Below, in pieces: positions 43,401 to 46,241 of a DNA stretch of 52,214 nt. Origin of the DNA: Bacillales bacterium UBA7057 (GTDB lineage: Bacteria; Bacillota_I; Bacilli_A; RF39; UBA660); NCBI GenBank assembly GCA_002493865.1, contig DLAC01000001.1:1330-53543 (forward strand). The letters are read 5' to 3'. The position numbers and the translations under genes were made by a program. Each line of letters starts with the position of its first letter. The first letter of the stretch is position 1. The notes under the pieces were generated by a model that did not search any database, was not told where the DNA came from, and saw only the letters and a list, made by a program, of their open reading frames with translations.

Positions 43401-43711
43401 GTAACAACAATATTCTTCTGATTATTTAGTATCAAGTTTAGTGTTTCTAAACGGTTTACCATTAAATCAGGGCTTACCGCAATGGCTTCGCTAGTTAAGA
43501 AATCGTCCATTGGAAATAGACTAGCGGATGAATTATAATTACTCAGACTTTCATAAATTTGATTTGCTTCATATAAAGAGGGTGTTACAATTAAGATTGA
43601 TTTTTCATGTTGATTCCAAAGTTGATTCAAATAAACAGAAAAAAGCTCGTTTGTTAAACCAGCCAGAGCGATATTATGAATCTTATTTGTTTGAAAACAA
43701 TTGTTAAGCAT
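40421..43711 (-). CDS. mfd: Transcription-repair coupling factor
   Basis: 1096 aa. CarD/TRCF RNAP-interacting domain. SF2 helicase motifs (GDVGYGKTEVA, DEEQRFG, TATPIPRT, QLYQIRGRVGRS). Conserved pth-mfd adjacency. Confidence 0.95.
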   Translation of the reverse strand: MLNNCFQTNKIHNIALAGLTNELFSVYLNQLWNQHEKSILIVTPSLYEANQIYESLSNYNSSASLFPMDDFLTSEAIAVSPDLMVNRLETLNLILNNQKNIVVTNLMGYLRFLPSKNLYQKSHFTFSIDDEIEPKELVEKLYHIGYTKESIVTKTGEFSVRGFVIDVFPLGLDHPVRFEFFGDSIESIRSFDEDTQKSLESLKSVSIDPYTEFILEKYPEEYESKQKHLLELSNSVSNIYQYLDPTIVIYKDYPQLEKSYELLVKEIFEYRQEKDQAFQSKYMFDLTEINPSNQIHYLTIDNLLSDKNIEIIRYDSKEILPFNENIELINNFLKDQLYLNKNIWICLKKHQIRTFTKELQVPYILTDENHFYPGQVNIIEKSIGKGFIFGDYVVISDLDLFHSAVPRKKYKTKFKYASKIKDINKLNIGDYVVHNVHGIGVYNGIHTITQFGLKKDYLEILYAGKDKLYIPVEKIDLISKFSGNEGVVPKINKLGGSDWNKVKARVKNKIHDIADKLLRLYAEREMKKGFAFSPDGEFQESFEESFEYQETKDQLIAINQIKHDMESSVPMDRLLCGDVGYGKTEVAFRAIFKAVMDSKQVLYLCPTTILSNQHYHNALNRFSNFPVRIALLNRFTTPKEKKRIIEGLKDGSIDVVIGTHRLLSDDVKPKDLGLLVIDEEQRFGVTHKEKIKEYKSNVDVLTLTATPIPRTLQMSMVGIRSLSLIETPPVDRYPVQTYVIEENNQIIKDAIYKELSRNGQVFLLYNRVETIEKKAMDIHQLVPEARIICAHGRLSKEELEDRMAAFINHEYDILLCTTIIETGIDIPNVNTLIVLNADCFGLSQLYQIRGRVGRSNKIAYAYLMYHPQKMLTETAVKRLSAIKDFTELGSGFSIATRDLSIRGAGDILGSEQAGFIDTVGIDLYLKLLNDEVEKLKGNPIKEEEIQNEKPLLDVSTHISDTYTDDDNLKIEIHRKINEIDSYEKLQEVKEEIEDRFGKVNEEMLIYMYEEWFEKMAKYWQIEKIQKTRNSLELYFSPEMTMEIDGEQLFLDAFKITPMFRFKMTSSRLVVILDLIQLEKHYIYYLIDLLQVLKKKN

Positions 43712-44288
43712 CGATCGTTCCCTTCTTTATCTTTGTATTATATTTATTCATTAGATTATCAAAACTCATATGAAAATAATCTTCAAGTACAGAAAGTACC
43801 TCTTCTTTTACTTGATTTAATATTTCTTTCTCTGAATTTGATATTTTCCCTAATACATAATCTTTCGTATCTATATTTTTATTATTGGAAATTCCAATCT
43901 TAATTCGACAGTATTCCTGAGTTCCTAGATGAAGCTCAATATTTTTTAATCCATTATGACCTCCACTAGAACCCTTTTTCTTAATTTTAAAATTTCCTAC
44001 TTCTAAATCTAGATCATCATGAATGATTAAAAGATCATTTAATGTTATTTTATAGAAATCCACAAATCTGTGAATAACTTCTCCACTCAAATTTATATAA
44101 GATTGTGGTTTTAATAGAATTACTTTTTCTCCATGAATCAAAGTTTCCACATAAAGACCATTGAATTTTGATTTAGAAATAGTTATCCCCAGTTTTTGTG
44201 CAAAAAGATCAATTGTTTGAAAACCAACATTATGTCTTGTATTTTCGTATTCTTTTCCTGGATTTCCTAATCCAACAATTAATTTCAT
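43704..44288 (-). CDS. pth: Peptidyl-tRNA hydrolase
   Basis: MKLIVGLGNPG..Y..TRHN.GF start and the GGHNGLK block. Confidence 0.95.
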   Translation of the reverse strand: MKLIVGLGNPGKEYENTRHNVGFQTIDLFAQKLGITISKSKFNGLYVETLIHGEKVILLKPQSYINLSGEVIHRFVDFYKITLNDLLIIHDDLDLEVGNFKIKKKGSSGGHNGLKNIELHLGTQEYCRIKIGISNNKNIDTKDYVLGKISNSEKEILNQVKEEVLSVLEDYFHMSFDNLMNKYNTKIKKGTIDA

Positions 44289-44292
44289 TTTA

Positions 44293-44772
44293 TCACCTAC
44301 TTAAAGTTTTTACTTTATTCACAACTTTTTTGTATTTCTTTTTTCCTAATATCTTTACTAAATGAATTTTTCTATTTTCTAAACTATGATGAACTAAATC
44401 ATTTGAAATATAAAAATTATCATTATTTTCTGGATACCATTTAGAATCCCAATCTTTATGAACCCTTACTCTTAATCCATGTGGATTTACTTTCTGACCC
44501 ATATAATCATCTCCATTAATATCGAGTTCATCTTCTCTAATCCATTTAGAATCCCAATCTTTGTAAACCCCTACTCTTAATCCATGTGGATTTACCTTCT
44601 GTCCCATATCTATATTTATTGCCTCCCTAATTAGTTTTTTTAACTCATCTTCAGTATTAACAATACCATAGAGATGTTGTTGTTGTCTATAATACACCTC
44701 AACAGGATTAGAATCTCTTATGATTCCAACTCTAAATGTATGAGGATTTACTTTTAAAAAATAATCTATCAT
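44293..44772 (-). CDS. Unknown protein built from three tandem copies of the ribosomal protein uS3 N-terminal signature
   Basis: RBS AGGGGGAAC. Copy 1 is degenerate, [23 protein letters not shown] (residues 6-28). Copy 2 is [23 protein letters not shown] (nt 44607-44539). Copy 3 is [23 protein letters not shown] (nt 44502-44434). Compare bacterial uS3, MGQKVNP.G.R.G...DW.SKWY. A basic C-terminal tail follows. Confidence 0.7.
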
Positions 44773-44809
44773 ATAATAGTTCCCCCTAAAATCTAAGTTT
44801 TTAATTTAT

Positions 44810-44835
44810 AAAATTATTTCCCGGGAAATAATTTT
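44810..44835. terminator. Perfect 26-bp palindrome AAAATTATTTCCCGGGAAATAATTTT directly after the rsmI stop (probable terminator or protein-binding site)
   Basis: Read directly from the sequence. The arms are 13 bp each. The weak T-run (TTTTAT) is part of the stem. Confidence 0.5.
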
Positions 44836-45704: not shown

Positions 45705-46241
45705 TTATTTTTTCTTGTTTATTATTTTTTGATACATGTATTCAGGAACAGAAACTTCTAATTTTTCAACAATATCTAATTGCTGAATGACTTGATGAAT
45801 AGCCTCTGGATTTTGAGAACCAATTTCGATACTGATTCCTAAATCTACAATATTCTCTAACCAAATAGTCACCGTTTCCGTTTGATATTGTACACCAGTT
45901 TTCTCTAATTTAAAAGAAAAATTATATTGATCTTCATAATTTTCCTGAACAAATCTCATGGCACTATCCAAGTCATCAAATTCTTCCCTTACCAAAACTT
46001 TATCTTCTTTTTGATTTCCAGTAAAAATTGCTCTCTTGAGTATTACTAAAACACTTTTGTTTTTCCACTCATTATGTTGATAAACTCGAATTTTTAAAGT
46101 ATCATCAGTAATAGAATTACCATTCTTGTTAATATAAACTAAATCATAAAAAGCAAAGTCACTAACTTTCCGATACATATTTTTTTGTAAATACTCTTTA
46201 ATTTCAGTTTCATCTTTTAAAAGAACCCTAGAATAAAACAT
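45705..46241 (-). CDS. CYTH-like domain protein (CyaB/triphosphatase fold)
   Basis: An E.E.K-type motif near the N-terminus (DETEIKEY). The C-terminal block VTIWLENIVDLGISIEIG resembles the v.lD.v..LG.fvEiE strand of CYTH proteins. Recognition by eye only. Confidence 0.4.
   Translation of the reverse strand: MFYSRVLLKDETEIKEYLQKNMYRKVSDFAFYDLVYINKNGNSITDDTLKIRVYQHNEWKNKSVLVILKRAIFTGNQKEDKVLVREEFDDLDSAMRFVQENYEDQYNFSFKLEKTGVQYQTETVTIWLENIVDLGISIEIGSQNPEAIHQVIQQLDIVEKLEVSVPEYMYQKIINKKK

Follow-up and report, generated by a model that had tools for sequence, protein, structure and literature searches.

A small gene between rsmI and pth in uncultured low-GC Bacilli that joins the N-terminal peptide of ribosomal protein uS3 to a basic tail

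On the reverse strand of a 52,214-nucleotide (nt) stretch of DNA from Bacillales bacterium UBA7057 (contig DLAC01000001.1, positions 1,330 to 53,543; hereafter the window), an open reading frame (ORF) here called X lies between rsmI and pth (window positions 44293..44772, minus strand, ATG start) and encodes a protein of 159 amino acids (aa) that combines copies of the N-terminal motif of ribosomal protein uS3, the product of rpsC, with a basic C-terminal tail. Our analyses show that X is a real protein-coding gene and belongs to an unnamed new family restricted to one clade of uncultured low-GC Bacilli (approximately 26–31% GC; the window has 30.9% and the X-bearing relatives 26–29%), and it is best described as partial ribosomal-protein paralogy combined with chimeric gene birth. 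The explanation that we favour as a whole, to which we assign a probability of roughly 40%, is that this rpsC-derived protein would act as a small basic binder of RNA or ribosomes through its uS3 peptide and be co-translated with Pth and Mfd. X had been noticed in an earlier interpretation made from the letters of the DNA (the sequence-only reading), with whose translation ours agrees exactly, and the identical 159-aa protein recurs on 35 contigs, drawn from assemblies of NCBI, ENA and Logan.

Homology to uS3 is confined to its N-terminal part. The model of bacterial uS3, TIGR01009 (rpsC_bact), matches three distinct stretches of X (E = 8.9e-21), of which the best pairs residues 91–126 with model positions 1–37, although the whole-protein score of 74.6 bits lies below the curated cut-off of 114.5 bits. 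X carries the uS3 N-terminal signature MGQKV(N/H)PxGxR...W.S.W(Y/F); when the 70-aa core of the family is compared with a uS3 alignment by hhalign, residues 1–27 alone are aligned (27 columns, probability 99.3), and among PDB sequences the family profile found uS3 chains, over their residues 1 to approximately 35, and beyond these only two marginal hits (E at least 0.1). Pfam gave no match on the window protein and four other members, and hence neither the KH domain (KH_2, PF07650) nor the C-terminal domain (Ribosomal_S3_C, PF00189) of uS3; the precomputed Pfam field is likewise empty for ten members (P0001–P0010). The view that the units copy the uS3 N-terminus without its KH and C-terminal domains is thereby borne out. 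A looser likeness to uS3 had also been proposed for the residues past the motif; this is not significant by hhalign in the window protein, but it is in two distant members (P0130 and P0136), where it runs through helix alpha-1 to residue ~48 with a probability of 98, so that the captured rpsC fragment originally exceeded 27 codons. Between 27 and 48 of the approximately 220 residues of uS3 are therefore present in the family. The first 27 residues, initiator methionine included, are near-identical to uS3 of the Clostridia/Tissierellia type, whereas the KH and C-terminal domains are lacking, the motif is repeated one to three times, the tail is unrelated, and the gene stands outside the S10 operon, away from the rplV–rplP slot and between rsmI and pth in all contexts.

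In the window protein the parts follow one another on the minus strand as a degenerate copy 1 of the uS3 motif (residues 7–28, 44689..44754; a TIGR01009 stretch and a member of DNA repeat family D2), linker 1 (residues 29–55, 44608..44688; slightly acidic, predicted to be helical by AlphaFold2 (AF2) at low confidence, and containing an AGGGAGG), copy 2 (residues 56–78, 44539..44607; a TIGR01009 stretch and a DNA repeat), linker 2 (residues 79–90, 44503..44538; containing a GGAG), copy 3 (residues 91–113, 44434..44502; the best TIGR01009 stretch and the conserved uS3 motif of the family, adjoining the tail) and the basic, family-specific tail (residues 119–159, 44296..44418; a predicted helical hairpin). 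DNA repeat comparison agrees with the earlier observation of two near-identical units at 105-nt spacing: a direct repeat of 80 nt (44425–44504 and 44530–44609) is 88% identical at a spacing of exactly 105 nt, and a third repeat copy of 29 nt lies at 44726–44754 (79% identical). Three copies are thus present, as the sequence-only reading held, but its description of them as tandem applies to copies 2 and 3 only, since copy 1 stands apart, 156 nt upstream of copy 2, and no array in X was called by Tandem Repeats Finder. Of the 69 nt compared between the two good copies, 7 differ, not nine or so as first counted, with two synonymous sites and three amino-acid changes.

The tail defines the family. 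A protein search found nine close relatives of 102–127 aa, all unnamed and without Pfam domains; every other match was a true uS3, and the match N-terminal only. A profile of the C-terminal 41 residues, run against 1.84 billion representative proteins, recovered the X family alone, in 11 clusters of 58–126 aa (clusters being defined at 50% identity), and homologues overall measure 58–159 aa. All members have the N-terminal motif GQxVNPHxLRVG...DWDSKWYPE and the tail RKIxLxKLLGKxxYKKxVNKVKxLSR, so the conserved core of approximately 58–70 aa consists of one uS3 N-terminal motif and the basic tail. In alignments of close members with the window protein as first row, the tail has a mean column identity of 81–82% and 15–17 invariant columns, and it is recognisable in every distant member. 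Compared with uS3 by hhalign over several windows and under a permissive setting, the tail stayed below a probability of 1%, and tblastn against the six frames of a genuine S10 operon gave noise only; an origin of the tail from rpsC, in-frame or out-of-frame, is therefore unsupported. The tail has no match in Pfam or among PDB sequences, and Pfam, PHROGs and Rfam have none on X or its region. The literature on the uS3 N-terminus and assembly, and on truncated or paralogous rpsC, yielded no description of such a gene. Species-representative genomes with X are CANOBK01 (‘uncultured Bacillales bacterium’) and JAAWDC01 (‘Bacilli bacterium’).

The genomic context is equally fixed. In 11/11 family members with context examined, X comes between rsmI and pth and ends 4 nt short of pth, and mfd follows 3' of pth wherever an X-bearing contig reaches far enough. 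The neighbours pass curated cut-offs as RsmI (TIGR00096), Pth (TIGR00447) and Mfd (TIGR00580), which upholds the flanking genes first named, rsmI and pth. As read from the sequence, X, the first cistron of X-pth-mfd, has a Shine-Dalgarno sequence GGGGGA (44781..44786, minus strand) 8 nt 5' of its start; an AGGGGG or AGGAGG equivalent stands 5' of the start in the orthologues where it was read, with a weaker AGGT in L022. The TGA stop (44293–44295) belongs to the X–pth junction (44286..44298, minus strand), where the last codon and stop of X (AGG TGA) lie within the pth Shine-Dalgarno sequence AGGTGAT; indeed the codons AGT AGG TGA (Ser-Arg-stop) form that sequence, and the pth ATG (44286–44288) comes 4 nt after the X stop. 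In all X-bearing loci AAGTAGGTGAT, then 3 nt, then ATG is identical. Furthermore, pth and mfd overlap by 8 nt (window 43704–43711), a geometry shared by most X-bearing loci that include mfd, and from this overlap together with the X–pth geometry we regard X, pth and mfd as a chain of closely coupled cistrons.

Selection on X was assessed by pairwise Nei-Gojobori comparison of four two-copy orthologues. The ratio of non-synonymous to synonymous divergence (omega) was 0.29–0.55 over the whole gene, compared with 0.08–0.10 for pth and 0.04–0.10 for rsmI; within X it was 0.10–0.32 in the uS3 motif, 0.17–0.65 in the tail and 0.26–1.2 in the N-terminal extension (copy 1 and linker). Synonymous divergence (dS) in the motif, at 0.5–1.2, is as high as in the neighbouring genes (0.34–1.15), and hence the motif is kept as peptide and not as RNA, which disfavours the RNA-level role, such as rpsC autoregulation, that had been suggested. 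X proteins are 43–77% identical where neighbouring proteins are approximately 88–93% identical. Judged by these ratios, purifying selection acts on the amino-acid sequence of the core and is relaxed in the N-terminal extension, X being fast-evolving yet selected. In one member, P0007, the tail-proximal copy is decaying and the other motif copy is intact. The open frame is kept in relatives, as had been anticipated, which excludes a decaying gene fragment; the second alternative of the sequence-only reading, an exapted 5' fragment of rpsC, fits a conserved, selected small family in fixed synteny.

How the gene came about can be followed in loci that lack it. A metagenome scan with Pth gave 80 loci whose Pth is 45–74% identical to that of the window; none of these 80 encodes the X tail or motif, and in approximately 35 of them rsmI directly adjoins pth, with gaps of 3–108 nt. 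A near-identical AGTAGGTGA stands 5' of pth in the X-less loci L024, L026 and L048, and, because L026 and L048 have it without X, the last codons and stop of X were taken from a pre-existing pth ribosome-binding site. Locus L024, whose RsmI is 86% identical, has the palindrome described below and then, at 2470–2496, an 8-codon ORF, MIILFVSR*, which ends at the same AGT AGG TGA and is apparently a remnant of X deletion. In a neighbour-joining tree of RsmI and Pth, L024 joins the X carriers L020 and L022 (98% bootstrap) within the X clade (100%), and, being nested there, the L024 lineage has lost X. X arose once, on the stem of its clade, from an ancestral state in which rsmI abutted pth. A 5' piece of rpsC (the start codon plus at least 27, originally ~48 codons) became fixed in the short rsmI–pth spacer, its frame running into a basic tail of approximately 40 residues and ending at the TGA of the pre-existing pth ribosome-binding site.

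The number of motif copies has since varied. Three are present in the window, two in most close relatives, and one in L008 (79 aa), P0127 (67 aa) and P0130–P0134 with P0136 (58–118 aa). The triplication, which the sequence-only reading had treated as the hallmark of the gene, is a polymorphism at the level of strains: the strain carrying L009, 99.6–99.7% identical to the window over 6 kb, has two copies, the sole difference being a 105-nt deletion, and its single main copy is an exact recombinant of copy 2 (5') and copy 3 (3'), copy 2 as such being missing. P0006 and P0007 have lost copy 1 and linker 1; since both keep linker 2, the three-copy arrangement predates their lineages as well as the strain-level polymorphism. 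Copy 1 is disrupted in P0123 and P0125 and absent in L005, L008 and L010, and in L014 (2834–3213) X is split into a 51-aa ORF (copy 1 and linker) ending at a TGA and a 70-aa core that begins 11 nt later, in another frame, at an MGQ ATG. At least one intact motif is always retained in the family. On this record extra copies are gained and lost by recombination between copies, and they look redundant.

Each internal MGQ ATG is preceded, at 7–14 nt, by a GGAGG-like sequence; in the window AGGGAGG (44622–44628) lies 14 nt before the ATG of copy 2, and the GGAG pointed out by the sequence-only reading before copy 3 is found at 44511–44514, 8 nt 5' of its ATG. Linker 2 resembles the 5' leader of X, which suggests that the duplicated unit may have carried its own ribosome-binding site, and the split in L014 shows that an internal MGQ site can, on the evidence of its reading frames, serve as a real start. 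The internal Shine-Dalgarno sites probably also yield the 70-aa core alone.

Constraint on the motif is unlike that on uS3. All of 18 uS3 sequences examined have Gly9 (in P-x-G-x-R), as do the PDB uS3 alignments, whereas copies in X have G, S, T, A, N or E at this position; His8 is kept in nearly all X copies, and the main copies mostly read WYPE, with a few WYQE, WYLE or WYSE, where uS3 has WYAE. A fresh recapture of the main copy from rpsC within the window clade was considered and rejected, as all main copies there have WYPE and not WYAE. A single genuine rpsC was examined, that of L104, which belongs to a different order; 50–51 of its 69 nt agree with the copies and the differences are at synonymous sites, the peptides being nearly identical, and it stands in a genuine S10 operon quite unlike the X locus. 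A uS3 search seeded with P0015 sampled Tissierellia, and none of its matches fell on the long contigs known for the X clade. As a separate observation, P0011, from another metagenome, is a fragment of a true rpsC product with a KH domain in which the first 20 residues are duplicated in tandem. Its junction, IRRANM, is the translated rplV–rpsC spacer, representing either the same type of 5' duplication in a genuine rpsC or an assembly artefact, and P0014 and P0026 are L22–uS3 read-through fusions of the same spacer.

The core of X is strongly basic (pI 10.2, net charge approximately +10; pI 10.4 for the tail alone). AF2 modelled full X at a predicted local distance difference test (pLDDT) of 41.6, which is uninformative, and the 70-aa core (P0122) at 58.8 with the uS3 motif disordered. 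The only moderately confident part is the P0122 tail, with helices at 35–53 and 55–69 (pLDDT 70–80).

Since the only conserved element of this basic protein outside the tail is the N-terminal peptide of a ribosomal protein, binding of RNA or of the small subunit is the most plausible function; taken alone, binding through the uS3 peptide is possible, and we advance it tentatively. The uS3-derived peptide would be unstructured by itself and would attach to the same partner as in uS3, for which the surroundings of 16S rRNA and uS10–uS14 in the 30S head are the most plausible candidate; non-specific affinity for RNA would come from the helical hairpin; and, the three cistrons being coupled, X would be translated at a constant ratio to Pth and Mfd. 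A table in PMC11711686 gives an rRNA contact of uS3 as ‘his, pro > C1109’, without residue numbers, and was not used here.

Several points weigh against this explanation. Both structure models are of low confidence overall, and Foldseek found no match in the PDB for the model of the 70-aa core. X has been lost at least once, in L024, and its non-synonymous evolution is approximately five times faster than that of its neighbours; from the loss and the fast evolution together, its function is either dispensable or rapidly changing. With Gly9 free and His8 and WYPE kept, the constraints on the motif differ from those of uS3. Gene conversion from rpsC might account for the conservation of the motif, although the family-wide WYPE, as opposed to WYAE, argues against conversion. 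Finally, the docking idea would lose its basis if residues 1–27 of uS3 mainly pack on its own KH domain.

In a more specific form, X would be a trans-acting copy of the uS3 docking peptide, acting on immature or uS3-depleted 30S heads as a placeholder, an assembly checkpoint or a hibernation factor. The free peptide would be anchored by the basic helical hairpin at the site of the uS3 N-terminus, a fixed ratio with peptidyl-tRNA hydrolase would link quality control of the small subunit to the rescue of aborted translation, and one to three motif copies would tune avidity. We consider so definite a role rather unlikely.

A doubtful but serious alternative is that X matters through its translation, delivering ribosomes to pth and then to mfd, and that the peptide has little or no function; X would then give these genes a ribosomal-protein-grade initiation region or tie the level of Pth to translational capacity. 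The invariant 4-nt gap, the placing of the pth Shine-Dalgarno sequence inside the last codons of X and the overlap of pth with mfd are what such a leader cistron should display. The plasticity of X, whose architecture is repeated one to three times, split or truncated while the 3' junction is never lost, points the same way, as do an omega several times that of the neighbours and the dispensability of X in L024, which retains an 8-codon ORF that stops at the same TGA. However, X-less relatives translate pth from a near-identical AGTAGGTGA directly after rsmI, so that X is not needed for this purpose, and coupling alone would not conserve approximately 65 residues as amino acids while synonymous sites saturate, nor keep the tail recognisable in 11/11 of the family clusters found.

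The sequence-only reading, which our results support in part, had put forward a mimic or decoy of uS3. It is improbable, though less so than the readings that follow, that X is a decoy which titrates a factor recognising the uS3 N-terminus (a modifying enzyme, a chaperone or an assembly GTPase), or which binds uS3 itself and not rRNA. A motif conserved as amino acids and predicted to be disordered resembles a short linear motif, several redundant copies would raise avidity, and the constraint, which frees Gly9 and fixes His8, is unlike that on uS3. The conserved neighbourhood, however, suggests no such partner, the strongly basic tail fits nucleic-acid binding better, and we know of no bacterial factor that recognises the uS3 N-terminal peptide.

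The narrow taxonomic range, fast evolution, unstable architecture, one loss and N-terminal omega of up to 1.2 might also be expected of a young chimeric ORF, a partial rpsC duplicate without function that is drifting to loss. This is decidedly improbable: the frame is intact in every lineage examined, with dS of at least 1 between the most distant compared; omega in the core is 0.1–0.3 for the motif and 0.17–0.65 for the tail; the tail keeps its 15–17 invariant positions among close members and can be recognised in every distant one; and an intact motif is always kept.

There is very little probability that X works as an RNA-level mimic of the rpsC initiation region, titrating a regulator of the S10 operon. 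Each copy does keep an ATG preceded by a Shine-Dalgarno-like sequence, but the motif has a dS as high as its neighbours, no Rfam element was found in the region, and L104 rpsC shares just 50–51/69 nt with the copies, differing at synonymous sites.

That X is an artefact of assembly or belongs to a misassembled rpsC has, sequence similarity apart, only P0011 in its favour, which shows that duplicated rpsC starts can occur in assemblies. This reading is refuted by the same gene with the same conserved non-uS3 tail and the same fixed surroundings outside the S10 operon on dozens of contigs that were obtained independently, in different studies and with different assemblers, and by the quite different S10 operon of L104.

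The rpsC-derived binder that we favour has partial counterparts among known systems. Bacteria possess full-length alternative paralogues of ribosomal proteins, for example the zinc-independent copies of L31, L33 and S14; like them, X is an extra ribosomal-protein sequence away from the main ribosomal operons, but theirs are complete and replace or join the ribosome, whereas X keeps the N-terminal uS3 peptide only and cannot replace uS3. X resembles translationally coupled upstream cistrons in that its stop lies inside the ribosome-binding site of the downstream gene, and it resembles chimeric genes born of partial duplication in joining a fragment of an existing gene to sequence of unknown origin; it differs from both in that its product is conserved as a protein across a clade and its donor is an essential ribosomal protein. 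In Bacillus (B. subtilis) the gene for Ctc/bL25 lies upstream of pth, and X occupies the same slot. The likeness, raised by the sequence-only reading, is positional only and without weight, as rsmI directly adjoins pth in outgroups.

A conceptual analogy may be drawn with Ltv1, Enp1 and Yar1 (for example PMC6279377 and PMC10695388), which in eukaryotes occupy the uS3 site or chaperone it while the 40S head is being assembled, for there too a non-ribosomal protein would stand at the position of uS3 in the small-subunit head. These factors have no sequence kinship with X and do not copy uS3, and X is known here from sequence alone. To our knowledge they have no bacterial counterpart, nor do we know of a factor at the uS3 site in late assembly of the bacterial 30S head.

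X represents a datable case of a gene born out of part of an essential ribosomal-protein gene, and for this case the insertion site, the borrowed stop and ribosome-binding site, the ancestral state in outgroups, a later loss and repeat change at strain level are all documented. If it does bind the small subunit through its uS3 peptide, short docking segments would be reusable as independent ribosome ligands, and X would give access to the late stages of bacterial 30S head assembly; as a trans-acting copy it would be the first known bacterial factor to have evolved by excision of a docking peptide from the ribosomal protein with which it competes. If X were only a coupling cistron, it would show housekeeping operons acquiring conserved small ORFs that annotation pipelines leave unnamed.

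Beyond X, the insertion site is bounded upstream by a perfect 26-nt palindrome, AAAATTATTTCCCGGGAAATAATTTT (44810..44835), which begins 1 nt after the rsmI stop and is unique within the 52-kb window. The palindrome occurs at the end of rsmI also in L001–L013, L020–L024, L026 and L061; its 14-nt core, ATTTCCCGGGAAAT, does not vary among the X-bearing loci tested, and near-identical palindromes occur in two loci that lack X, L024 and L026, and in L061, where RsmI identity is down to 50%. A chance match was rejected, the palindrome being conserved far beyond the neighbouring coding sequence. L014 has a different hairpin in its place and L008 a C-to-T change that keeps the pairing, which together favour an RNA hairpin; a terminator scan did not call the palindrome, its folding energy is unremarkable, and it may be either a terminator or an operator. 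A second copy of ATTTCCCGGGAAAT lies at 374–387 of L007 (a CANOBK01 contig), approximately 7.4 kb upstream of the copy between rsmI and X. On the far side of rsmI, between that gene and one for a TrmN-like methyltransferase, the window has a 178-aa ORF (45705–46241, minus strand) without a match in Pfam or NCBIfam, which is absent in L020, L022 and L024, split in L002 (83 + 96 aa) and kept in close relatives.

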